From: Polyangiaceae bacterium
GTDB lineage: Bacteria; Myxococcota_A; Polyangia; Polyangiales; Polyangiaceae
NCBI GenBank assembly: GCA_041389765.1
Contig: JAWKRE010000002.1
Span: 1 to 11,907, forward strand
Length of the DNA stretch: 11,907 nucleotides
Direction: 5' to 3'
The notes beneath the pieces were generated by a model. It made no database searches. It worked only from the letters and a program-made list of their open reading frames with translations, and was not told the origin of the DNA. Below, piece by piece: positions 1 to 11,907 of the stretch. How positions within the stretch are numbered: position 1 is the stretch's first letter; each line of letters begins with the position of its first letter. The translations under genes and the position numbers were made by a program.

Positions 1-994
1 GTGATAGCGAGTCCGCCTTCGCCCCGACATCCGCGCTCGCCGCCACGTCCACCAGGTCCGACTCTTTCAGCTCCACCGGCTCCGGCGGAGGCGCGGACAC
101 GCTCTGGATGCTCGACCACGAGGCCGCCGCGATGCTCGCCTCCGGCGCCGCGCCCTGCACGATCGCCACGAACGCGTCCGTCAGCTCCCGCACCGATTGA
201 AAGCGCTCCTCCCGGTTCTTCGCCAGCGCCCGCGCAAAGAAAGGATCCAGCGACTCGGGCAGCTCCTGCACGAACGTCCCCACCTTCGGCGGCGGCTCGA
301 CAAGCACCTTCGACAGCACCGTCCCGAACCCGTCGCCCGAAAATGGCAGGTGCCCTGTCAGCATCCGATAGGCGATCACCCCCACCGCCCACACGTCCGT
401 CCGGTGGTCCACGTCCTTGTCCCCCCGCGCCTGCTCCGGGCTCACGTAGTGCGGAGTCCCCACGATCTCCCCTGTCCGCGTCGACTCCCCCCGCAGCTCC
501 CCCGGCTGCTTCGCGATCCCGAAGTCAAGCACCTTCAGGATCTCGTAGTCGTCCACGCGCGCGAGAAACAGGTTCCCCGGCTTGATGTCGCGGTGCACGA
601 TCCCCGCCTCGTGCGCTCGCCGCAGCGCCTTCGCCACCTGCACGAGCAGGTCCGCCGTCTCGCTCACGGGCATGCGCCCCATGCGCCGGAGCCGCGTCCG
701 CAGGTCCTCCCCGCGCAAGAGCTCCATCACCAGATAAGGAGTCCCCTCCTCGACCCCGAAGTCCTGCACGTGCACGACGTGAGGGCTCTCGATCGCCGCC
801 GCCGCCCGCGCCTCCCGCTCGAACCGCACCACGAACGAGCGCGACCCCACGAACCGGGCGTCGAGGAACTTCACCGCGAGCTGGGACCCCAGCTTCACGT
901 GCCGCGCCACCCACACCGAGCCCATACCCCCGCGCGCAAGCTGGGCCTCCAGCCTGTACTTTTCCGCAATGACAGTTCCCGCCGCAATGCGCAT
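1..994 (-). CDS. Hanks-type Ser/Thr protein kinase, intact, 3' end (C-terminus) runs off window start
   Basis: Minus-strand translation from the ATG at 992-994 reads MRIAAGTVIAEKYRLEAQLARGGMGSVWVARHVKLGSQLAVKFL. This gives the Gly loop (GGMGSV), the VAIK-type Lys (LAVKF), [14 protein letters not shown] at rc ~575-616, DFGIAK and SPEQ. An in-frame TAG lies 5 codons upstream of the ATG. I translated 2..540 fully and found no stops and no frame change. The annotated antisense ORF 197..1021(+) is its shadow. Confidence 0.9.
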   Translation of the reverse strand, partial: MRIAAGTVIAEKYRLEAQLARGGMGSVWVARHVKLGSQLAVKFLDARFVGSRSFVVRFEREARAAAAIESPHVVHVQDFGVEEGTPYLVMELLRGEDLRTRLRRMGRMPVSETADLLVQVAKALRRAHEAGIVHRDIKPGNLFLARVDDYEILKVLDFGIAKQPGELRGESTRTGEIVGTPHYVSPEQARGDKDVDHRTDVWAVGVIAYRMLTGHLPFSGDGFGTVLSKVLVEPPPKVGTFVQELPESLDPFFARALAKNREERFQSVRELTDAFVAIVQGAAPEASIAAASWSSIQSVSAPPPEPVELKESDLVDVAASADVGAKADSLS

Positions 995-1235
995 TCGCCG
1001 TGGAGCCTAGCGCTGCAATGACGCACGGGAAGGCGCCCGCGAATCGAATTACGCATCTTCTGTGATCTGGCCGGAACATTTGACAGTTCCGCCCAGCAAA
1101 TGGTCTCATGCCCGCGCGGGAGCCGCGCCCTCACCCCCTCATTGTGCCGCCCCGCGTCACATTGCGAGCAGGTCGTCAACCGTCATTGCGCACTGTCATG
1201 GACATGAGTCCCCCCCGTTGCCGGTTCGCAATGAC
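965..1235. promoter_or_regulatory. Leader/promoter region of kinase 1 with repeated CGCAATGAC / GTCATTGCG motif and palindrome AATGCGCATT (986-995) overlapping the start codon
   Basis: Direct reading: CGCAATGAC at 965-973 and 1227-1235, tGCAATGACg at 1014-1023, reverse GTCATTGCG at 1182-1190, and half-sites at 983-991 and 1160-1166. A perfect 10-bp palindrome lies at 986-995. The 14-mer tgacagttcc(c)gcc occurs at 970-983 and 1081-1093. Confidence 0.3.
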
Positions 1236-1238
1236 GGG

Positions 1239-2048
1239 TCAGCGCGCCTTCGGGTCCACCCGGTCCACCTTCGCGCAGCGGCGCGAGTCCGTACACAGCG
1301 CACCATTCGGAATACGACAGCACACTCGCCCGCCCGAGCAGCTCGCGTCCGCCTTGCACCGGTTGGCGGCGCAGCATGCCAGTCCCTTCTTCCCCGCAGC
1401 GTCGAAGTCCTCCTGCGTGTAGCAGGGCGTGCAGGGCTTTTCGCCTCCTGGCAGCGACGCCGCCGCCGCCCGCACCTCCGCGTTCTCCCGCAGATCCAGG
1501 CTCTTCTGGAAATAGGCCCGCGCCCCCGACACGTTCCCCGCCCCCTTCTCGATGAGCCCCAGATTGTAATACACCGCCGCGAGCGGCATGGGGCTCTTGG
1601 GCTTCATCGCCAGCGCCCGGTCGCACTCGGCCTTTGCGTATCCCAGCTTGCCAGCCTGGATGTTCTTCCAGCACCGGTCGTTCCACTCCCACCCGCCGCG
1701 CTTGTCGATGAGCCCCACGTCCTCCGGAGGCAACACCGGCTTTCGCGCGTTGGTCCCGTCGTTGTCCGAGGCGGCTCCCACCGGCACGGGCACAGGATTG
1801 CCGTTCGCGGCTGTCGGCACGGGCGAGGGCACGGGCTCCTCCGCCACGATCCCCCCCGCCCCGCACTCGCACGGCAAGAACCCGCTCCCCTCGGCGTTGC
1901 ACGCCTGTGATCCCTGCGTCCCTCCCGGGCACGCACAGGCAGTCTGCTGCCCCGGCACACACTGCTGCGACCGGCAGGCGAAGACCCCCACCGAAACGAG
2001 AAATGCCGCGGCCACGAGCCCCACCCCCTTGCGCAAGATCGCCATCAT
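1239..2048 (-). CDS. Secreted/lipoprotein-like Cys-rich protein with one TPR-like motif (hypothetical), intact
   Basis: ORF track 1239..2198(-). The plausible start is the ATGATG at 2043-2048. It gives MMAILRKGVGLVAAAFLVSVGVFAC, a signal peptide with Cys following (lipobox-like). A Cys-rich segment follows (CVPGQQTACACPGGTQGSQACNAEGSGFLPCEC), then a Pro/Val linker. A TPR-like helix pair follows (KLGYAKAECDRALAMKPKSPMPLAAVYYNLGLIEKGAGNVSGARAYFQKSLDL), then a Cys-rich C-terminus. There are no frame breaks. Confidence 0.6.
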   Translation of the reverse strand: MMAILRKGVGLVAAAFLVSVGVFACRSQQCVPGQQTACACPGGTQGSQACNAEGSGFLPCECGAGGIVAEEPVPSPVPTAANGNPVPVPVGAASDNDGTNARKPVLPPEDVGLIDKRGGWEWNDRCWKNIQAGKLGYAKAECDRALAMKPKSPMPLAAVYYNLGLIEKGAGNVSGARAYFQKSLDLRENAEVRAAAASLPGGEKPCTPCYTQEDFDAAGKKGLACCAANRCKADASCSGGRVCCRIPNGALCTDSRRCAKVDRVDPKAR

Positions 2049-2361
2049 GCCTGTCACGCTACCACGACAGCGAACCCTCGCGATAGCCTGTCGCGGCGCC
2101 CACCATGCAGCGAATTGCCGCCACGCGCCCCCCAAGCACGTAGCGGAGGACCGTCCCGGTCCTGGAACAAGGCTTCCGGTGGCGCGGCACGCCGCCAAGC
2201 GGAAACGCGAAGAGCGTGGCGCATCAGGCTTGGATCCAAGGTGTTCTGTGGCGCTTTCCGCCAGACGAAAACGCGAGCTCGGCGAGACCGTCGGAACGCC
2301 CGCCCTGCGTGGAAGTCCCGCCAGACGCCCGCCCAGCAGGTAAATCCACAGACTGCTAGTT

Positions 2362-3463
2362 CTAGAATCTCCCCCCCACCGACAGGGCAGCTCCCTCCGG
2401 CGTGACGATGGGCGAGATGGCCAGTGTCCGCCTCACTGCCCCTGTCTTCTGCTCCTTGGGCCCGCTCACGAAGAACAGCACGAGCCCCGCCCCCGCCGCC
2501 GCGAGCCCCACCGGCAGCGCGATGGTCGAGACGAGCGCCTTCGTCCCCGCATCATTGATGACCGCCCGCCCCGCCGGACTGCACACCTTGCCGGGACACA
2601 GCGCCGGATCGCTCTCCGCGTTCCCCACGTCCGCCGCCGCGAGCCCCCCCAGCACGCCCCCCACCGCGGCCCCCGCAATGCCCACCCCCATGAGCACGTA
2701 CGAGGCTGTCCGCATCCCTGACCCCTCCTCGCCCCCGCCTGTCGCCGTTGCTGTCGGCGCGGCTGTGACCATGGCAGTCCCTGTCGGCGCAGCCGTGGTG
2801 TCCGGCGCGGTCGTGCCGCTCGCTGCGGCCGTGGCCGTGGCTGTCGGCGCAGGCTCGGGCGACTTCGTGAGAGGGGGAATCGCCGCCGTCTTCGAGTCCG
2901 CGTTGGGCCCCACGTTCACGGTGACTGTATACGCCTCATACCCCGGCGCCACCGCCTCGATCGTGTGATCGCCCGGGTCCACGAACAGGGGAGTCCCCAG
3001 CATGGCGGCCCCCATCTCCACCCCGTCGCTCTTCACCACGAGCCCCGGCACCGCCGCCGCCGTGATGGTCAGTCGCGACAGCTTCGGTTCGAGCTGCTTG
3101 GCCAGGTCGCGCGCCCCTGCTCGCGGTCCTGCCCGAGCTGCCCCGCGAGCACCGCCGCTTCCTTGTATTCCGTGAACGCCGACGCCGTCTTCCCGAGGCT
3201 CTCGTAGCACCGCGCCAGGTTGAGCTGAGTCCCCGGCGACGGATCGAGCTTCTGGCTCTCCGCGAACTTGGGGCAAGCCTCCGCGTACTTCTTCTCCCCC
3301 ATGAGCTTCTTGCCCGCCTGAAACAGCGACTCTGCCGCGACCTTCGCGCCTGCGCCGGGGCCGCGGGCGCGTGAAGCGCAGCGCTCACCGCGAGCGCGAC
3401 AGCCACGATGAGCCGCCGCCCGTGAAGCGCCCTTGTCGGTCTCGAACCGTCTCTAGCGATCAT
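2362..3463 (-). pseudogene. Signal-peptide TPR-like + PEGA-domain protein with two C-terminal TM segments; needs 2 frameshifts (about 3115 and about 3340) to read
   Basis: Three minus-strand ORF pieces join into one protein. Piece 2936..3463 gives the N-terminus MIARDGSRPTRALHGRRLIVAVALAVSAALHAPAAPAQA (signal peptide). Piece 3069..3302 gives GEKKYAEACPKFAESQKLDPSPGTQLNLARCYESLGKTASAFTEYKEAAVLAGQLGQDREQG (TPR-like). Piece 2362..3276 gives ARDLAKQLEPKLSRLTIT...VVKSDGVEMGAAMLGTPLFVDPGDHTIEAVAPGYEAYTVTVNV (PEGA-like), then a T/A/P linker and two hydrophobic helices. The junction at 3114-3117 is repaired by adding one C to a C4 run, which gives ...DREQGARDLAKQ. Confidence 0.7.
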
Positions 3464-5268
3464 CGAAGATGCTCTTTCCCTTGGTATCGGCGGGCTTTGC
3501 CGTCGAAGTAGCGGTCGCCTTGGCCCGCCCGCACTGCCGGTCGCGCCTCTCCCCGAGGTGGGATGGTTCCGCCGGCGACTGCCGCACTGGTACGTGGCCC
3601 CCGCCGCCGCGTCGTCGCTCGATGTCGACCCGCTCGCCGTCGCTGACGCCTCCGGAGCGGGAGTGTCCGTCGCCGCCGCAGCCGCGCTGGCAGTGGCGGT
3701 GACGCTGGCAGTGACACTGGCAGTCTCGCCGGAGGAGCCACGCTCGTCGCCGGAGAGCCCATCGCCTTCTCCGCCGCCGCCGTGGCCGGGCCGGAGCCGA
3801 CGCCGACCCGATCCCCACGAGCAGCGCCCCCGCGATCGCCCCGCCCGCGACGAGCACCGCCGCCGCGATCAGCAGCGGCGCCTTGCTCGAATTCGCCGGT
3901 GGAGGCGCCGGCGCCGCGATCACCATATCCGGCGCCGTCGACGGCCCGATCCCCGCCCCGCCCTTTCGGCCCCGAGCGCCCCCGGAGGCACGGTGTTGCC
4001 CGTCGCCGCCGCCTGCCCCGGAGCCCCTGTCGCGCCCGCGGCCGGCCCCGGCCCCGAGGCCCCGGTCACACCCCGGCCCCCGCCTGTCCCGGAGCCCCCA
4101 CCTGTCCCGGAAGCCCCGCCGCCGCCCCCAAAGGCGCATCGAGCGCGATGGTCCCCCCCGCCAGCGGAGCCCTCCCCGCCTGCCCCGCAGGCATCGCAGG
4201 CGCGTCGATCGCGACCGTGCCCCCGCGATCGGAGGCCGCGGATCCATCGCCAGCGTCCCCCCGCGTGCGCGCCGAGCCGGTGGGGATACGGGCTGTGGGG
4301 ACACCCCCGTGGGCGGCGTCAGCCCCGCAGCGCGGGCGATCCGATCGATGTTGGGCTGCGATCGTGCGGGCGCGAACGGCGCCAGCGCCACCGCAAACTC
4401 CGCGATGCTGCCATACCGCTCTGCCCTGTCGCGGGCGTACGCGCGCTCCAGCACCGGCGCGAGCGAGGGCGCAGATCCGGCTGCACGTTCGCGAGCGGCG
4501 TGGGAGTCCCCGTGAGCACCTCCGCGCAGAGCTGAGGCAGAGTGTCCGCATAGAAAGGCTGCTTGCCCGCGAGCAGCTCGTAGAGCGAGATCCCCAGAGC
4601 GTAGATGTCCGTGCGGTGATCGACCCCCGCGTCTGCTGCATCTGCTCCGGCGACATGTACAGCGCGGACCCCATCGCCGTCATCGTCTTGGTGAGGTTCT
4701 CGGTGGACTCTGCCATCTTCGAGATGCCGAAATCGAGCACCTTCACCAGCGCCGAGCCGTCGTGCCGCCGCGTGAGGAACAGATTGGCAGGCTTGATGTC
4801 GCGGTGAACGATCCCCGCGGCGTGCGCCTCCGTGAGGGCCTCCGCCGCCTGAAGCATTGTAGTCCACCGCGTCGTCCAGCTTCTGCACGCCGTTCTTCAT
4901 CAGCTCCCCCGCGAGGTCGTGCCCTGGAGGAACTCCATCACCATGTACGGAGCCTCGTTTTCGAGCGTCCCGACGTCGCTCACGCGCGCCACGTGCTCGC
5001 TCTTGATCTTCACCGCCGCCTTCCCTCGCGGAGAAAGCGCGCCACCGCCTCCGGGTGCTGCGAACGTGGATGTCAGGAACTTGAGGGCGACCCGATCATC
5101 GAGCACCATGTGCCGCGCCTCGACGACGACCCCATCCCCCCTGTCCGATCACGCGGTCGACTCGATACTTGCCCGCGAGGACGGTGCCCGGCGCGACAGG
5201 CGCGTCGTTGGCGACCGCCGGCCCTGCCGACTCCGGGGTTCCTGCGGGGTAGTGGTGGACTCCGTCAT
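3453..5268 (-). pseudogene. Receptor-type Hanks Ser/Thr protein kinase (catalytic domain + Pro/Gly linker + single TM + repetitive extracellular tail), at least 7 frameshifts
   Basis: The pieces on the minus strand are as follows. An ATG at 5266-5268 sits 5 nt after the upstream gene stop. GTVLAGKYRVDRVIGQGGMG lies in a second frame. Then comes VVVEARHMVLDDRVALKFL...APYMVMEFLQG (ORF 4900..5109), then [20 protein letters not shown] (4319..4900), then [28 protein letters not shown]...VLDFGISK...YMSPEQ (4066..4857). The kinase continues with [24 protein letters not shown] (4319..4900 again) and ...[19 protein letters not shown], followed by the TM helix KAPLLIAAAVLVAGGAIAGALLVGIGS (3453..4454). 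After that comes (VTAS)n low complexity. The shift at 5130-5133 is a missing C in a C4 run. The exact 3' end is ambiguous, between 3453 and 3470. Confidence 0.85.
3683..3725 (-). repeat. In-frame 12-nt tandem repeat (gctggcagtgac, about 3.5 copies; encodes VTAS repeats) in the post-TM tail of kinase 2
   Basis: Direct reading of ctggcagtggcggtgacgctggcagtgacactggcagt. Confidence 0.7.
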
Positions 5269-5274
5269 GACCGT

Positions 5275-7225
5275 TACCTGCCCAGCTTTCCGAGGATCAC
5301 ATCATTCGAGCCGACCGGCGTGACCGCCCCACCGCCGAAGTCCGCAGTCTGGCTGAACGAGCCCGCCAGCAGCGAATACCCGGCCCCGTCGACAGAGCCA
5401 GTCCACCGTGCCCCCAGCGCGTGAACCCACTGCACGTTGCCCGAGCTGTTCAGCTTGGCGACGAACGACCCCGCCTTGGGCGTCCCGGAGTCGGCAGCAT
5501 GGTGTTGCCCAGCATGAAGGGCTCATCGTACACCCCGGCGATCCACGGCCCGTCCGTCGTCGCCGTGACGCCGTGGAGCCTGTCGTTCCCGGCCCGCCGA
5601 ACTGCTTTTGCCACAGGACAGTCCCGCTCGAATTGTAGGCCACCACCACGATGTCCTGCGCGTCCGGCGTGAGCACCGTCCCGTTGAAGTTGCTCGGCGC
5701 GGTCAGCGTCCCTGCCACGATGGGCCCCGAGAGCCCCTGCGCCACCTTCGAACGAGAACCCACCCACGTCCGCCCCCTTCATCCACAAGGGCGCTCCGTT
5801 CAGGTCAATCTTGGCGAGGAAGAACGTCTGTCCCGCCGCGAGCGGCCCTGTCCCGATATCGAACCCCGGAGTGCTCGTCGTCCCCACCACGTACGCCGCG
5901 CCGCCCACGTAGTCTCCCCCAGGCTCCCTGACCCGAACATCCCCTCATCCCCTGACCCGCCCAGGTTGATCTTCCACTTGACCTGATTGGCCCCGTCGTA
6001 TTTCACGAGGAAGATGTCCGACCCCCCCACCTTCGCGATGGGGTGCGTGTTTCCCTGAGCCGACGAACACCGAGTCGCTGTCGAACTCGCCGGCCACGAG
6101 GTACCCGTCGAACACCCACTCTGTGCTCACACCTTCTGGTTGTTCCCGCCCCCGTACCCCAGGCTGAAGATGTGATTCCCGGACGTGTCATACCGCGCCA
6201 CGAACCCGTCGAACCCCTGTGAGATCCCCAGCGCGCCCCCGCCCGGGTCGAAGTTCCCGAACAGATAATACCCCGCCGCGAGCACCCCGTTGTTGTTGTG
6301 GAAGCTCACGTCGTTGATCGCCTCCGACGCGTCCCCGGAGAGCTGCTTGCTCCACCCGAACGACCCGCCGGGTTGTAGACAGCCAGGTACACATCCCCCC
6401 AGTCGTTCCCTGCGAATTCATGAACCTGCCGCCCATGTCGAGCGACCCCTTGAACCACCCGAGAATACGGCCTTGTTCGAGAACCCCGCGACGGCCACCC
6501 CGAGCTGTACTCGCTGCCGAACCCCCTTGGGAACGACCACACCGCAGTTGAACCCGTTGCAGTCCTCGTCCTCCGGCGCCCCGCAGAACTCGTCCGCCGG
6601 CACCACCTGCCCCAGGCACAGGTTGGGGTTCATGAGATCTGGCAGGATGCCAGTCGCCGGACACTGCAACGTCGACGACTTGCACTGTCCCACACCGGCA
6701 GTCCCCGCGGGCCCCAAAACACGTGAGCGCCGTGTCGGTGTGCAACACCCGTTCTCCGCCAGCGAGAACCCGTCGCAGTCGTCATCCTCCGGCGTCGTGC
6801 AATCCTCGAAGTTGCCGGGCAGCGTCTGCCCCTTGCAGGCGTCGAAGCCCGTCCCCTCCAGGTTGCACTTCTGCTGCCCCTTCTTGCAGACCCCCACGCC
6901 CTCCGTCCCGTTCGGCCCCTCGTAGCAATCCACCGACTCGCCCGGCGTGCAGATCATGCCCCGCCGGTGCCCCCGGTGCCGCCGGTGCCGCCGCCGCCTT
7001 GCGCTGTCCCGCCGGTGCCGCCGCCGCCTTGCGAGGTGCCCCCGGTGCCGCCGCCGCCCTGCGACGTCCCCCGGTGCCGCCCTGCGTCGTGCCGCCGGTG
7101 TTGCCGCCGGAGCCCCCGTCGGCCGCGTCCGTGAAGTCGTCGATGCCGAGGATCAGCCCGCACCCGGTGGAGGCCAGGGTGAGCGGAAACGTCGCGGCGA
7201 TGAAGCGAAGGGTGTACGTTGCATG
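5275..7225 (-). pseudogene. Lipoprotein with Gly/Thr-rich linker, Cys-rich E-x-C-x3-E-D-D-D-C-D/N-G repeats (MopE/'putative metal-binding motif'-like) and SBBP beta-propeller repeats; at least 6 frameshifts
   Basis: The ATG at 7223-7225 plus one C-run repair gives MQRTPLRFIAATFPLTLASTGC, a lipoprotein signal. The linker is GGSGGNTGGTTQGGTGG(TSQGGGGTGG)x3. The Cys-rich block is at 6418..6957(-): CTPGESVDCYEG...EDCTTPEDDDCDG...EFCGAPEDEDCNG. SBBP-like repeats are spread over three frames: FDGFVARYDTSGNHIFSLGYGGG, SDIFLVKYDGANQVKWKINLGGSGDEG, FLAKIDLNGAPLWMKG, VVVAYNSSGTVLWQKQFGGPG and FVAKLNSSGNVQWVHALG. The protein ends ...SNDVILGKLGR with TAA at 5275-5277. The shifts at 7068-7072, 6959-6962 and 7210-7212 are all minus-one events in homopolymers. 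Confidence 0.8.
6958..7100 (-). repeat. In-frame about 30-nt tandem repeat (gccggtgccgccgccgccttgcg.ggt.cc, 4-5 copies) encoding the GGTGGTSQGG linker; one copy carries a frameshift
   Basis: Direct reading of 6958-7100 shows near-identical 30-mers. The last copy lacks 6 nt and has a C5 run where the others imply C6. Confidence 0.7.
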
Positions 7226-7394
7226 GGGATCCTCGGCGCGGAGGACGCGCCCCGCCCGATGATCGCCGAACGTGCAGCGCCATCGCAAGCCTCTCGGCGC
7301 CGCCGCCGGCCTTCTTCTCCCGGCGGTCCCCCTCCGAGGCCCTCTTCTGCGATTTACGTGACCCGAGCGCGCCGAACCCTCTACCCTTGCCGCG

Positions 7395-9021
7395 ATGGAA
7401 GAAGGCGCGGATCCCAGGCAGGAAGGCACCGGCACCGAGTCCGTCTACGCTCCCCCAAGGCATGACGGCCCGCTCGACGATCTCGTGTCCCGCGCGATGG
7501 AGCCTCGGCACCGAGCCGACCGTCCGGCAGCAGAACGGCATCTACGAGGTCGTCGGCGAGATCGTCTCCCGTACAACAACCACGATCTCGCCCCCGCCCG
7601 CATCCGCGATCGCAAGTGGGCGATGCAGGACATCGCCGCGTCTCTGGATCAGCATGTCCGCCTGTGTCCCCACGTACATGCTCGCCTCCTCGCTCATCTC
7701 CGAGGGCATGAGCTGGTGGCAGGCCGTGCTCACCATCTTCCTCGGCAACTGCGTCGTCCTCTTGCCGATGGTCGCCAACGCCCACGCCGGCACCAAATAC
7801 GGCATCCCGTTCCCGTCTACTGCCGCCCTTCGTTCGAATCCTCGGCGCCAACGTCCCCGCGCTTCTCCGCGCCCTCGTCGCGTGCGGCTGGTTCGGAATC
7901 CAGGCCTGGATTGGCGGCTGGGCCATCTACAAGATCCTCACTGTCTACTTCCCCGCCTGGGAGAAGCTCCCGAAGTCCTACGGAGGGATCAACGGCGCCG
8001 GGCTCGTCTGCTTCCTCTTCTTCTGGGGCATCAACATGTTCGTGATCTACCGAGGAATCGAGTCGATCCGCATCCTCCTCAACATCAAGGCCCTCTCCTC
8101 ATCGCCCTTGGCCTGGCGCTCCTCACGTGGGCTTACGTCAAGGCCGGCGGCTTTGGCCCCATGCTCACGAAGCCCTCTGCCTTCGAGCCCGGCCAGCCCA
8201 AAGCCGGCCAGTTCTGGACCTTCTTCTTCCCCGCCCTGACAGGCATGGTCGGCTTCTGGGCCACCCTCTCCCTCAACATCCCTGACTTCACCAGATACGC
8301 CTTCTCCCAGAAGGACCAGGCCGCCGGCCAGGCCCTCGGACTCCCCACCACCATGGGCCTATTCTCCTTCATCGGAGTCGCCGTCACCAGCGCCACATTG
8401 GTCATCTACGGAGAGACCGTCTGGGACCCCGTTGTCCTGATCCCAAGTTCAAGCACCCGGCGATTCTGGTCTTCGCCCCCGCCGCCCTCTGCATTGCCAC
8501 GCTGGCCACCAACATCGCCGCCAACGTCGCAGCCCTGCCAACGACTTCGCCAATCTCTGGCCCTCCAAGATCTCCTTCCGCCGCGGCGGCTACATCACCG
8601 GTGTCATCGGCATTGCCATCCTCCCTGGCGCCTCGTCGCCGACCCCACCGGCTACATCTTCACCTGGCTCGTCGGCTACTCCGCCTCCTCGGCTCGATCG
8701 GCGGAATCCTCATCTGCGACTACTTCGGATCCGCCGCGCCAAGCTCGATCTCGTGAAGCTCACAGGAAGGATGGCCCTTACTGGTACACGGGTGGCTGGA
8801 ACTACAGGGCCTCTCGTCGCCTTGATGGCCGGCATCCTCCCCAATCTCCCCGGCTTCCTCGGCACGATCAAGGTCGCCAAGGTCGCCCCTCTATGGATGA
8901 CCCTCTACAACTACGCGCCTGGTTCGTAGGCTTCGGCCTCCTTCCTTGGTTCTACACCGTCCTCCTGGGGAGACCGCGCCCCTGCCGACTCTCCCCTGCC
9001 GGGCAGACCACCCCCGCCTGA
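7395..9021 (+). pseudogene. NCS1 family nucleobase:cation symporter (PucI/allantoin-permease-like); at least 6 frameshifts
   Basis: The following plus-strand pieces lie across three frames: RLPYNNHDLAPARIRDRKWAMQDIAASL; then WISMSACVPTYMLASSLISEGMSWWQAVLTIFLGNCVVLLPMVANAHAGTKYGIPFP; then [40 protein letters not shown]...MFVIYRGIESIRILLNIKA; then PLLIALGLALLTWAYVKAGGFGP...WATLSLNIPDFTRYAFSQKDQAAGQALGLPTTMGLFSFIGVAVTSATLVIYGETVWDPV; and finally ...LYNYAWFVGFGLLPWFYTVLLG. This matches NCS1 hallmarks (NGHAGTKYG.PFPV, ILNIPDFTR, LY..SWFVG) as I recall them. The N-terminal start is ATG 7395 or ATG 7497. One shift at about 7648 is a tc-dinucleotide indel. Confidence 0.85.
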
Positions 9022-9027
9022 CCTGCC

Positions 9028-9118
9028 GACTCCCGCCTTCGACTCCCGCCTTCGACTCCCGCCTTCGACTCCCGCCTTCGACTCCCGCTGTTGACCCCCG
9101 CCTTCGACTCGCCCCGAA
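9028..9118. repeat. 13-bp tandem repeat gactcccgccttc: 4 perfect copies (9028-9079) plus 3 degenerate copies, intergenic between convergent genes
   Basis: Direct reading shows perfect copies at 9028, 9041, 9054 and 9067. The copies at 9080, 9093 and 9106 carry 3, 1 and several mismatches. The unit length is not a multiple of 3. Confidence 0.9.
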
Positions 9119-9130
9119 CAGGACCGACGC

Positions 9131-10019
9131 TCAGCCTTCGTTGCGGACGCCCTTCTCGCGCGCTGACTGCACGAGGAAGAGCGCCAGCATGTACACATTG
9201 GCGACCGTCAGCCGGAACAGCACATATTCCGCCAGGTACCCTGTGCATGCGCAGACGCCGAGCAGGAGCCCGTGAGTGGAAGGCCTGAGAAACGCCCACC
9301 CCCGCGCCACCGGAGCCAGCGCCCGCCCGTACCGAGACGCCTGCTCCCGGTTGCTGCCGCTCTCCTTCTTCTTCCGCCCCAGCGCCGACTGCACCTGAAG
9401 AAACAGCGCATAGATCCGATAAAAGATCAGGTGAAAGAACGAGGCTCCTCGCCTTCGAGCGCGCGATATCGGCCCGTGTCTCTTCGAGATCATCCCCTCC
9501 GGTAGCTCGACCCTGAGAGCGTCAGATACCGATTCTTGAAATGATCAAACAGCGTCCCTTGCAGAAGGATGCTCAAGAGCCCCCCCACCGCCAGCAGCGC
9601 CCCTTGTCCCCGTGAGTCTCGTGCAGGTGAAGCGCCAGCGTGACCCCTGTCGCCACCCCCACGATGTAATCGCTCATCCCATCCAGGATGCGCCCGAGCC
9701 GCGACGACGTGCCCGGCGCGCGTGCGAGCTGCCCGTCCGCACAATCGAGGATCCCGTAGAGCAGCGTGAGCCCCGACGCGATGTAGATCGAGCGTGCGTC
9801 CGTGAACCGAAAGAGGACCGCCCCCGCCAGCCCGCTCGCAATGCTGAGGACGGTCATGCCGTTCGCGCTCAGCGGTGTGGGGAGCGCCAGCCGCACGAAG
9901 AGATAGGCAGTCGGCCGAAAGAAGTAGAGATCGAACGGAGTCTCGACCTGCCCCGGCTTCAGCGTGGCCCGGAATGACGCGATCTTCGGTTTCGCAGCGT
10001 GGCTATCGGCGGTCACCAT
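9131..10019 (-). pseudogene. CDP-alcohol phosphatidyltransferase family membrane protein; 2 frameshifts (about 9600 and about 9495)
   Basis: The minus-strand piece 9573..10211 contains MVTADSHAAKPKIASFRATLKPGQVETPFDLYFFRPTAYLFVRLALPTPLSANGMTVLSIASGLAGAVLFRF...LLYGILDCADGQLARAPGTSSRLGRILDGMSDYIVGV. This is the D-G-x2-A-R-x8-G-x3-D-x3-D signature. The protein continues in 9490..9744 (ALLAVGGLLSILLQGTLFDHFKNRY) and 9131..9493 (...TGYLAEYVLFRLTVANVYMLALFLVQS...), ending at the stop at 9131. The start is taken as the ATG at 10017-10019. The ORF is open upstream to 10211, so the N-terminus could be longer. Confidence 0.8.
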
Positions 10020-10274
10020 GGACAGGCATCCAGAGGGCTCAGCGGTGCGCCGAGCAGGCCCCACAAAGCGCACACCCCGAGCGCGCCTCTGCCCCGCGAG
10101 GTCCGCCTCGGTCATCCAAGCGTGCGTGCTGGAGAACACCGTCATCACATCATCGACCGACGGAGGCGGCGTATCTTCCAGCGGAGTCCCCGGAAGCGGC
10201 CGGAACACCACCGGCAGCGGGATCGCCCTGTATCCAGCACTGCCCGCACCGCAGACAGCGTATCTTCCAGCGGC

Positions 10275-11129
10275 TCAAGCCCGATGATGATCTGACTTCG
10301 ACACCTGGTTCTCCCCGAGGATCTTCACCGCGTACGCGAGGGCTTGGAGGTAGCGATCCCGCGAGATGGCCGCCTTCCCGGCATCATCTGCCTTCGAACG
10401 TCCTCGTCCCAGATTTCGAGGTTGAGGAGGATGGAATCGAGCCCCGCATCCTTGAGCCGATCGACAGTCGTCCGTATCGGGCGGCGCCATCTCGACGCAG
10501 ACAGGGATGCTCGCGTGCTTCTTCAATTCCGCGATGGCATCGGCCTGTGCCGAGCGCTCTTGTCCGTGAGCCACGTCCCCCGCCGAACGAGATCTCCGCC
10601 GCCGGATTCTCCTCCAGCGCCACCTTCACCACCTCGATGATGGGCTCGATCGCTCGCCACCGCGCCTTCTGGTCGATCTTCATCGCACAGAACTTGCACA
10701 TCTGATCCCCTGCCAGTAATCGCACCCCTGATAAATCGCTGTATACAGCGAAGTGTCACAGTGCGCCGACACCACCATGGACATGGGCGTCCCATCCTGA
10801 GTGGCCCGCGAATACCAGCGAGGCCACGCAAACGGCGTCGCGGTGACAAGCCGCTCCTCCCCTTCGTAGACGACGTAAGTCCCGTCTTCTTTTGCGAGGT
10901 GGAGCGGAGATCGCCGCGCAAACGGTTCGAGGACGGGCGCATTGACGGCAGTGTGCGACTCCCCGTCATGGAGCCGAAAAAACCGCCCTTGCGACAGGCC
11001 CGCCCGCTTGTGCCGATAGTGATTCTCGTCCGTGAGCTCCGCCCATAGCTCGTCCGGCACAAAGAGCCCTTGCGCAAAGATCTTCGCCTTCGCGAGCATC
11101 AGCCTCTCGGTGATGGGCCGGCGTGCCAT
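10275..11129 (-). pseudogene. Radical-SAM-like Fe-S enzyme with about 150-aa N-terminal extension (function unknown); at least 4 frameshifts
   Basis: The N-terminal piece 10680..11294(-) reads MARRPITERLMLAKAKIFAQGLFVPDELWAEL...MSMVVSAHCDTSLYTAIYQGCDYWQG. It runs into 10384..10725(-), DQMCKFCAMKIDQKARWRAIEPIIEVVKVALEENPAAEISFGGG, which has a Cys cluster and a GGE/GGD glycine motif. Then comes ...AIAELKKHASIPVCVE (10275..10574 frame), then TVDRLKDAGLDSILLNLEIWDEDVRRQMMPG (third frame), then KAAISRDRYLQALAYAVKILGENQVSKSDHHRA and the stop at 10275. The pattern (cluster, GGEP-like motif, ...LkdaGld.i.lslE...) fits the radical SAM fold. The family assignment is uncertain. An alternative start is at 11294. 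Confidence 0.5.
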
Positions 11130-11408
11130 GTCCGGCGCCGAGGGGACGGAAGCACCAGCACCCCCGGTGGTCGCCGGCCCCGCCCTGTCCGGACCGAGGG
11201 TCAGAGCAGGATCCAGGACACCGGCCGAGCCGCCCGCCGGAGCAGAACCTTGCCGATCGCCCGCCTGAACGAGAGGAAGTACACGCACCTGCAAGAGCGT
11301 AGGAGCAAACGCACTCCGTCGTCAAACCCCCCCGCGCCTTCCTGTGTGGATCGACCCACTGAACCTGTTAGTCTCGGTGTGCTCCAGCAATCGCCAGGTT
11401 CAACAGTC

Positions 11409-11648
11409 ATGACGGAGAGCGAGCTTCTCGACCGCTTTGGGGTGTCTCCCGCCGAGGCCGATCTCGACGAGATTCGGTCCCTTCTCCACGAGCACGCCGC
11501 CAGGGAACGGGACAGTCAAGGAGAGGGCGACACAGAGGTCATGAAGCTCTGTTGTGTGCAGCTATTCTCTGTCGGATTGCTGGAGGAGGCGGTACTATGG
11601 CGTGGGCGCCCAAGGAACGCCGTAGGCGCCCGCCTTTACCCCGCGTGA
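11409..11648 (+). CDS. Small hypothetical protein (79 aa) in a lower-GC patch
   Basis: ATG at 11409, from ORF track 11070..11648, gives MTESELLDRFGVSPAEADLDEIRSLLHEHAARERDSQGEGDTEVMKLCCVQLFSVGLLEEAVLWRGRPRNAVGARLYPA. The composition is less Ala/Arg/Pro-biased than the GC-frame artefacts around it. Local GC is visibly lower, and codons such as TTG, TGT and TTC are used. Only a weak SD is present. Confidence 0.35.
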   Translation: MTESELLDRFGVSPAEADLDEIRSLLHEHAARERDSQGEGDTEVMKLCCVQLFSVGLLEEAVLWRGRPRNAVGARLYPA

Positions 11649-11797
11649 GGGTGGCAGAGGACACGCCCCGTCGTCAGCTCCGCCACGAGCCACCGACGCA
11701 CGGTGCTTGCCGGCGGCTCGTCTCCCCTCCCGCGCCCCTCCCGCCCCAAGCGCCATCCTGCGCACAGCCCCCATTCCGGCTTGCCAGCGCCCCGTGA
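11597..11797 (+). CDS. Possible overlapping small ORF (66 aa, Arg/Pro-rich) with strong SD GGAGGAGG 7 nt upstream; may be spurious
   Basis: GGAGGAGG at 11582-11589, then ATG at 11597, gives MAWAPKERRRRPPLPRVRVAEDTPRRQ.... It overlaps the previous ORF by 52 nt in another frame. The product is compositionally like GC-driven junk. Confidence 0.2.
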   Translation: MAWAPKERRRRPPLPRVRVAEDTPRRQLRHEPPTHGACRRLVSPPAPLPPQAPSCAQPPFRLASAP

Positions 11798-11816
11798 TTT
11801 GTGAAAGCCTCCCCTC

Positions 11817-11907
11817 ATGGCCTCTTCGCCCCCACCGGGCGAGCCCGCCCATCTCCCGTCCCCCAACCTCGCGGCCCCCGTCGCCAGCCTCCCCACCCCC
11901 CCGGTCG
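11817..11907 (+). CDS. Possible 5' end of a gene running off the window (MASSPPPGEPAHLPSPNLAAPVASLPTPPV...)
   Basis: ATG at 11817 is followed by an open frame to the window end. It is not in the ORF track because no stop is present. The N-terminus is Pro-rich. This is very tentative. Confidence 0.15.
   Translation, partial: MASSPPPGEPAHLPSPNLAAPVASLPTPPV

Follow-up and report, generated by a model that had tools for sequence, protein, structure and literature searches.

Gene content of the contig end

The window, the whole 11,907-nucleotide stretch of DNA analyzed here, makes up the last 11.9 kb of a contig of 203,907 bp from a Polyangiaceae metagenome-assembled genome (MAG) with locus tags R3B70_, and it carries kinase, lipoprotein, TPR protein, transporter, phosphatidyltransferase, and radical SAM genes (Table 1). 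The locus is also present in an independent assembly, the NCBI MAG GCA_041389705.1 (contigs JAWKRI010000075.1 and JAWKRI010000159.1, labeled L001 and L003), which served as the reference for all indel counts. In the DNA alignment, window positions 1 to 7165 correspond to the reverse complement of L001 and positions 7111 to 11907 to L003 1-4841; the sister contigs break at window positions 7111 to 7165, with variant tips. All six genes that are broken in the window are single full-length open reading frames (ORFs) in the sister assembly, as established by alignment, gene calls, and Pfam searches, and the expected Pfam domains were found in its genes. By these gene calls, six of eight genes are broken; an earlier note on this DNA was right that the damage spans several genes, but its count of seven of nine did not hold.

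Table 1. Features of the window, with counterparts in the sister assembly GCA_041389705.1 (contigs L001 and L003)
Feature	Coordinates	Strand	Counterpart or remark
Ser/Thr protein kinase gene, first 331 codons, intact	1..994	-	Pfam Pkinase on the 464-aa orthologue
269-aa TPR-containing lipoprotein gene (R3B70_00865), intact	1239..2048	-	exact protein in two NCBI MAGs
368-aa TPR protein gene, broken	2362..3463	-	5 indel events at 3114-3425; intact in L001 3752-4858
Indel-bearing stretch	3114..10729	.	126 events in 7616 bp (1.65 per 100 bases)
Substitution-bearing stretch	3430..11124	.	about 255 mismatches to GCA_041389705.1
613-aa Ser/Thr kinase gene, broken	3453..5268	-	intact in L001 1921-3762; Pfam Pkinase 9e-42
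Large lipoprotein gene, broken	5274..7224	-	open 637-codon frame in L001 2-1915
NCS1 nucleobase:cation symporter gene, broken	7395..9021	+	intact 545-aa P0001, L003 286-1923
13-bp tandem repeat CGACTCCCGCCTT, 6.5 copies	9027..9110	.	between the convergent NCS1 and transferase genes
CDP-alcohol phosphatidyltransferase gene, broken	9131..10019	-	intact 297 aa in L003 2047-2940
Radical SAM gene, broken	10039..11129	-	intact 367 aa in L003 2960-4063
Right flank	11125..11907	.	identical to GCA_041389705.1, without a called gene there

The two left-most genes are intact, as had been claimed. The first of them, a kinase gene, is cut short at position 1, where the source contig ends. Its deposited protein, MEZ4293497.1 (331 aa, labeled "partial"), is identical to the translation of the window, down to a V variant that results from a single mismatch at position 51. 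The second shows no differences from L001. The zone without events, previously placed at positions 1 to 2048, reaches further, to position 3113, and this segment matches the sister assembly with that one mismatch only. The large lipoprotein, described as "SBBP" in the earlier note, had no Pfam match; it has an N-terminal signal peptide with a lipobox at about 7160 to 7224, and its start, MQRTLRFIAATFPLTLASTGC, was taken from L003. The intact NCS1 protein P0001 matches Pfam Transp_cyt_pur at 6e-122, and the 120 listed homologues (8000 scored) are all single proteins, nearly all of about 490 to 545 aa. The 13-bp repeat that follows the NCS1 gene has one unit fewer than in the sister assembly, and the deletion cluster at 9085 to 9093 sums to 12 bases. 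No RNA element was found by Rfam in the whole window, and no riboswitch upstream of the NCS1 gene.

The annotation of the source contig (proteins MEZ4293497 to MEZ4293516) enters the gene fragments as proteins (about 13 accessions, MEZ4293499 to MEZ4293512). Only a 229-aa fragment (P0148), named "hypothetical protein", is kept of the TPR gene at 2362 to 3463, and the transferase is represented by a 148-aa "CDP-alcohol phosphatidyltransferase family protein" (P0151) that ends in the out-of-frame tail RCWRWGGS. At least one further disturbed patch lies on the source contig beyond the window, in the last ~40 codons of a CMD-family protein (P0157 compared with P0156), which indicates that the defect is patchy along the contig and not bound to one gene neighborhood.

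A third copy of the NCS1, transferase, and radical SAM genes, again intact (proteins MEZ4302035 to MEZ4302037), is present on a contig of 14,248 bp that was submitted in the same batch. This contig ends adjoining the last single-nucleotide polymorphism (SNP) of the window, the pattern expected of a strain branch point in the assembly graph. A scan of genome contigs with the intact 269-aa protein as the query, in a collection that includes neither the source nor the sister assembly, yielded only a 39%-identical relative from an Archangium MAG. A scan of metagenome contigs with the intact NCS1 protein returned 80 loci of at most 80% identity; neither a nearer allele nor a copy of the window was among them. 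A literature search on the assembly accession found no paper.

Indels and substitutions relative to the sister assembly

The frameshifts are confirmed as present in this neighborhood, far above chance, and the disturbance is larger than first described. Between 2.3 and 11.1 kb the phase of GC3 changes dozens of times, and the alignment to the sister assembly contains 126 indel events, of which 77 are deletions and 22 are insertions of one base and 27 are longer. With events no more than 10 bp apart merged, these make 86 sites, 72 of which are net frame changing; the previous "at least 25" was threefold too low. The frame-changing sites number 2 in the TPR protein gene, 18 in the kinase gene at 3453 to 5268 (38 indel events), 17 in the large lipoprotein gene (at least 25 indel events), 18 in the NCS1 gene (23 frameshifting events), 4 in the transferase gene (11 frameshifting events), and 8 in the radical SAM gene (10 indel events), all of the last at or below position 10729. 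They are distributed along the whole length of the genes and shift the frame in both directions.

All 126 events fall between positions 3114 and 10729, a stretch that is taken to be low-quality consensus. At the same rate, 71 would be expected in the remaining 4291 bases, where none was found (P about 1e-31), and the strongly uneven distribution reported before is thereby borne out. The indel-bearing stretch is approximately one long read in length.

Deletions outnumber insertions, 95 to 31. The share of C runs that are contracted rises from 0.8% for single C and 1.6% for C2 to 2.9% for C3, 14% for C4, 28% for C5, and 63% for C6 or longer. Most frame-changing tracts are C4 to C6 (runs of 6 or fewer) or not repeats. 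The junctions listed in the earlier note were recovered, with C deleted at 3114, 5134, 6959, and 7068, GG inserted at 7210, and T inserted at 7641 and 4858. Its generalization that every junction is a slip in a homopolymer or dinucleotide run is correct for part of the events only; 30 of the 77 one-base deletions (39%) and 11 of the 22 one-base insertions lie at non-repeated bases. On the given strand, T deletions are three times as frequent as A deletions (P = 0.005), an asymmetry that is only suggestive; the corresponding comparison of C and G runs (P = 0.14 to 0.19) is limited by the rarity of G runs, of which only 15 are of length 4 or more.

The substitutions follow a different pattern. 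The stretch from 3430 to 11124 is a truly different strain allele, which the earlier note overlooked. Over 2542 clean codons, Sd was 142 over 1961 sites and Nd was 58 over 5665 sites, with pS of 0.07 and pN/pS (dN/dS) of 0.14, and the co-occurring strains thus differ by ~7% at synonymous sites. Within single genes, dN/dS is 0.19 in the 613-aa kinase (88 mismatches) and 0.03 in the radical SAM gene, whose 5′ 400 bases carry third-position substitutions only. None of the clean codons contains a nonsense substitution, in agreement with the earlier report, and the kinase and transferase motifs are still readable. These values are those of ordinary strain divergence under purifying selection, and the two alleles diverged as functional genes. 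The indel and SNP intervals are offset at both ends (P = 3e-5 and 0.0015), which indicates two separate layers; the segment from 10730 to 11124 is free of indels and has 19 substitutions, of which 17 lie at spacings that are multiples of 3.

Two other accounts of the mismatch between the assemblies were considered and rejected. A faulty sister assembly is at odds with its full-length genes, its complete Pfam matches, and lengths that agree with the listed homologues, and a paralogous decaying duplicate is at odds with flanks that are both identical to the single-copy locus of the sister assembly.

Origin of the frameshifts

The earlier note offered two readings and chose neither; its interpretation overall is partly supported. 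The first, homopolymer error of the long-read type at low coverage, is supported by the intact sister genes, the purifying selection, the scaling with run length, and the identical flanks. We consider it highly probable (roughly 0.93) that the frameshifts are assembly consensus errors and not mutations of the organism, because the sister assembly has the same six genes intact. The hallmarks of a long-read artifact are present together: an intact independent sequence, a deletion bias with run-length scaling, and no loss-of-function signature in the substitutions.

The consensus over 3114 to 10729 would rest on very few error-prone reads, and its error profile, deletion biased, with homopolymer undercalling that grows with run length and with scattered indels outside repeats, is like that of nanopore-type long reads. 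The weak stretch falls on a strain-variable place, where the assembly graph would split and the coverage per path would drop. The contig would then have taken the path of a minority strain that was never properly polished, and the flanks, common to the strains, would be well supported and error-free. Some length differences may be real alleles; candidates are the in-frame changes of the kinase's low-complexity linker (3640 to 4120) and the missing 13-bp repeat unit at 9085 to 9093. The last 3.1 kb of the contig are clean, although contig ends are usually weakest, which speaks against the consensus-error reading; this clean end may be better explained by a join that was bridged or gap-filled than by simple decay toward the end.

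Homopolymer indel errors in long-read assemblies are said to fragment gene calls (so, reportedly, Watson and Warr in 2019). For nanopore consensus sequences, gene calls fragmented by homopolymer indels are documented, above all in metagenome bins with less than about 40-fold coverage (Sereika et al. 2022, PMC9262707; Kastor, PMC12007338). The window resembles such errors, which are worst in low-coverage metagenome bins, in its deletion-biased 1-bp indels that rise with homopolymer length, in split ORFs that are colinear with intact orthologues, and in fragments deposited as proteins. It differs from the usual case in that the contig is exact outside the error patches and that the errors fall together with a strain-variable stretch. 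What we infer is the platform, the low coverage, and the history of the graph.

A different artifact, be it a chimeric consensus from collapsed reads of two or more strains or the product of a flow-based platform (454, Ion Torrent), is very unlikely. Several strains are demonstrably present, a mixed-strain consensus can give indels where alleles differ in length, and flow-based chemistries also miscount homopolymers. However, isolated 1-bp deletions at non-repeats (30 of 77) are untypical of flow-based chemistry, the substitutions look like a single coherent allele, cleanly patterned at third positions and not scrambled, and a contig as long as 204 kb, obtained from a complex community, points to long reads.

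The second reading of the earlier note, a genuine and very recent slippage-driven inactivation, would give one strain ~70 frame-breaking indels in six neighboring genes, an accessory block that is decaying or has been turned off. The stretch is a distinct strain allele, for which a strain-specific history is conceivable, and many events are contractions of C runs, typical sites of polymerase slippage. Nevertheless, we regard this reading as very unlikely and the evidence as not supporting it. After the first gene-killing frameshift, further indels and substitutions would build up neutrally, whereas the observed pN/pS is 0.14 without nonsense codons, which is not the relaxed selection of pseudogenes or a decaying island. 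The ratio of 126 indel events to 256 substitutions far exceeds expectation for bacterial pseudogenes. In addition, 63% of the C runs with at least 6 bases would have contracted between alleles only ~7% apart at silent sites, 39% of the 1-bp deletions lie outside repeats, the flanks have no indels, and a further disturbed patch occurs outside the block. In a search of 5.8 billion proteins with the 600-aa out-of-frame ORF at 7219 to 9018, no protein of another assembly had any of these frameshifts, and the best match to the out-of-frame NCS1 reading is the intact P0001. Pseudogenes of reductive evolution (Mycobacterium leprae, recent host-restricted symbionts) show a dN/dS close to 1, contain nonsense substitutions, and are spread over the whole genome; the window shares with them many adjacent genes with disrupted frames, but it borders sharply on error-free flanks. 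A variant in which a localized slippage-prone repair or replication event introduced ~70 frame-breaking indels at once into a 7.6-kb block of a minority strain is more improbable still; if true, it would have silenced six genes without an accompanying substitution load.

Contingency loci of Neisseria, Haemophilus, and Campylobacter switch reversibly through one long poly-G/C tract per gene, usually of at least 7 to 8 nucleotides and often near the 5′ end. The window is like them in frame changes at homopolymeric C/G tracts and unlike them in having 2 to 18 frame-changing sites per gene, mostly C4 to C6 or non-repeats, in housekeeping-type genes, and no single tract at a 5′ end or promoter is the sole frame switch. 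Phase variation by reversible changes in repeat length, or programmed recoding by ribosomal or transcriptional slippage, is effectively refuted, its one point of support being the short homopolymers at many junctions: up to 18 frame-changing sites occur per gene, the orthologues and the sister assembly have plain single ORFs instead of one conserved slippery site common to orthologues, no Rfam element was found, and we know of no recoding system that tolerates so many shifts in both directions.

Significance for MAG catalogues

The frameshifts have no biological significance for the organism; their relevance is to data quality. Such patches raise the counts of pseudogenes and orphan genes in MAG catalogues, and they may be misread as gene decay or phase variation. 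The comparison also provides a recipe that distinguishes error from decay without reads, in which the dN/dS of the substitutions is set against the indel load and the two layers are compared for shared boundaries.

Frame disruption and an intact counterpart of the locus

The G+C content of the window is 68%, and in DNA this rich in G+C the GC3 phase marks the coding frame. This phase is steady through the two genes furthest to the left; from about 2.3 to 11.1 kb it changes dozens of times. In the six-frame translation, recognizable fragments of a kinase, an NCS1 permease, a CDP-alcohol transferase, and a radical SAM enzyme are spread across all frames. The frameshifts are therefore a real property of the deposited sequence. 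An Rfam scan of the window gave no match.

An intact version of the locus was found in the MAG GCA_041389705.1. The 269-aa lipoprotein has an exact match on its contig JAWKRI010000075.1 (L001), and a stitched NCS1 query retrieved P0001, a protein of 545 aa that is intact and 92% identical to the crude stitch, from contig JAWKRI010000159.1 (L003). DNA alignment matches window positions 1-7165 to L001, reversed, and 7111-11907 to L003 1-4841. All eight genes at the locus are open in this assembly. For window 11130-11907 (L003 4064-5038; about 1 kb), the intact assembly has no gene calls, only short overlapping ORFs, and the GC3 phase is coding-like in places.

Genes of the locus as called in the intact assembly, with net frame-changing sites in the window
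Product	Window position	Strand	Domain match	Net frame-changing sites
Kinase, 464 aa	1-994	minus	Pfam Pkinase	
Lipoprotein, 269 aa	1239-2048	minus	weak TPR matches (TPR_2, E 7e-6, below cutoff)	
TPR protein, 368 aa	2362-3463	minus	weak TPR_2 match (E 5e-6, below cutoff)	2
Kinase, 613 aa	3453-5268	minus	Pfam Pkinase	18
Large lipoprotein, at least 637 aa	5274 to ~7224	minus	no Pfam match	17
NCS1, 545 aa	7395-9021	plus	Pfam Transp_cyt_pur	18
CDP-alcohol phosphatidyltransferase, 297 aa	9131-10019	minus	Pfam CDP-OH_P_transf	4
Radical SAM, 367 aa	10039-11129	minus	Pfam Radical_SAM	8

Relative to this assembly, the window carries 126 indel events, of which 77 are one-base deletions, 22 are one-base insertions, and 27 are longer. 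Together with the GC3 switches and the six-frame pieces, they bear out the frameshifted stretch described in an earlier note and make it larger than was claimed. Merging events no more than 10 bp apart leaves 86 sites, 72 of which have a net effect on the frame, so that the estimate of at least 25 frame changes was about threefold too low. The individual junctions cited as examples are all correct against the reference alignment. The genes affected, counted by the reference gene calls, number six of eight rather than seven of nine.

Separate layers of indels and substitutions

All indels fall within 3114-10729, and the remaining 4291 bases hold none, against 71 expected at an equal rate. Deletions and insertions stand at 95:31. 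The proposed attribution of all junctions to slips in homopolymer or dinucleotide runs holds only in part: contraction of C runs does rise steeply with run length (C1, 0.8%; C2, 1.6%; C3, 2.9%; C4, 14%; C5, 28%; C6 or more, 63%), but among the one-base events, 30 of the 77 deletions and half of the insertions occur at non-repeated bases. On the given strand, T deletions are three times as frequent as A deletions (P = 0.005), an asymmetry that hints at single-orientation reads, which explain it more easily than does mutation of double-stranded DNA.

Low-complexity coding repeats occupy the Pro/Gly/Ala-rich linker of the 613-aa kinase (window 3640-4120; units of 12, 18, and 36 bp) and the Gly-rich N-terminal part of the large lipoprotein (6961-7100; units of 9 and 30 bp). 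The messiest indel clusters are those of the kinase-linker repeats (3638-3646, 3961-3967, and 4092-4114), where some in-frame changes may be real length variation; indels in the lipoprotein repeats are single-base deletions only. Between the NCS1 and CDP-alcohol transferase genes, which converge, the intergenic space is filled by a 13-bp tandem repeat (CGACTCSCGCCTT; window 9027-9110, L003 1930-2027), with 6.5 copies in the window versus 7.6 in the other assembly, and this one-unit difference may be a genuine allele or an error.

About 255 substitutions (3430-11124) lie in the same region as the indels, mainly at third positions of codons without nearby gaps. Nei-Gojobori counts over six genes gave Sd 142 over 1961 sites and Nd 58 over 5665 sites (pS 0.072, pN 0.010, ratio 0.14), and such codons include no nonsense codon in these genes, as the earlier note had reported for substitutions. 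This layer reflects two working alleles that have diverged in the ordinary way. Its boundaries differ from those of the indel layer at both ends: positions 3114-3429 hold five indels and no substitutions (P = 3e-5), and positions 10730-11124 hold 19 substitutions, 17 of them spaced by multiples of three, and no indels (P = 0.0015).

Origin of the frameshifts

We consider the frameshifts to be, with a probability of roughly 93%, a consensus indel artefact rather than a real biological feature. Long-read-type indel error at low coverage, one of two readings offered earlier, is strongly supported by the intact assembly, the run-length-dependent deletions, and the purifying-type substitutions. Nanopore consensus is reported to retain homopolymer indels that fragment gene calls, notably in bins whose coverage is below about 40-fold (PMC9262707; see also PMC12007338).

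The presence of several strains suggests how such a patch most likely formed. L001 and L003 both terminate at window 7111-7165, in the Gly-rich repeat region of the lipoprotein, with about 49 core bases in common and differing tips. This pattern resembles a break of a de Bruijn graph at a polymorphism between strains. The same submission batch holds a third, intact copy of the NCS1-transferase-radical SAM genes on a 14,248-bp contig (MEZ4302035-MEZ4302037); compared with the intact assembly, its NCS1 protein equals P0001, its transferase differs by one residue, and its radical SAM protein ("partial") differs by two. This contig terminates at about window 11185, adjoining the last SNP. It may represent a second haplotype that was placed in the bin of the window's contig, and the accession numbers are compatible with one bin. 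The assembly graph would split where strains differ, lowering coverage per path, and the long contig would have taken the minority-strain path, which over about 7.6 kb (about the length of one long read) would be backed by very few error-prone reads and would have missed polishing. The strain-common flanks, probably well covered, are exact. The out-of-frame NCS1 reading of the window has no match among 5.8 billion proteins, two large DNA collections (genome and metagenome contigs) yielded neither the source sequence nor a closer allele of the locus, and no mention of the assembly accession was found in the literature.

The other reading offered earlier, real slippage-driven inactivation of the gene block, is very unlikely. 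A single frameshift suffices to kill a gene, and neutral decay to as many as 18 frame-changing sites per gene would be expected to come with far more substitutions, distributed evenly among the codon positions, and with stop codons. The reverse is observed: pN/pS is 0.14, nonsense codons are absent, and there are 126 indel events against 256 substitutions. It would also require that 63% of C runs of six or more had contracted while the alleles came to differ by only 7% at silent sites, and we know of no evolutionary process that matches this indel-to-substitution ratio and C-run contraction. Neither phase variation nor programmed frameshifting fits how many shifts there are, where they lie, and which way they run, or the plain single ORFs that all the relatives examined have.

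Damage beyond the window and in protein databases

Exact-sequence look-up showed that the 269-aa protein is also deposited at NCBI as MEZ4293498.1 (R3B70_00865), encoded on a contig of 203,907 bp that belongs to another Polyangiaceae MAG. The neighboring "partial" kinase MEZ4293497.1 (331 aa) equals the window translation from 994 down to base 1, one variant residue included, and the window therefore begins at the contig's end. Just past the window's other end, proteins of 113 and 125 aa are identical to those of the other MAG. A CMD-family protein (P0157) then matches the other assembly over 386 residues before a scrambled, frameshifted C terminus, a second disturbed patch that lies some 1.9 kb to the right of the window and corresponds to L003 6690-6810. 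Because this C terminus lies outside the window, the defect appears patchy along the contig and not bound to one gene neighborhood, as judged for the CMD patch from protein sequences.

MEZ4293499.1 (P0148, 229 aa, "hypothetical") is a C-terminal fragment of the TPR gene, and MEZ4293509.1 (P0151, 148 aa, "CDP-alcohol phosphatidyltransferase family protein") is an N-terminal transferase fragment ending in the window's out-of-frame tail RCWRWGGS; the source annotation thus enters gene fragments as proteins. Frameshift fragments of 2362-11129 are deposited as separate proteins in the range MEZ4293499-MEZ4293512, and such entries pollute protein databases. What the case offers is a caution that consensus errors in MAGs can be patchy and add fragment proteins to these databases.
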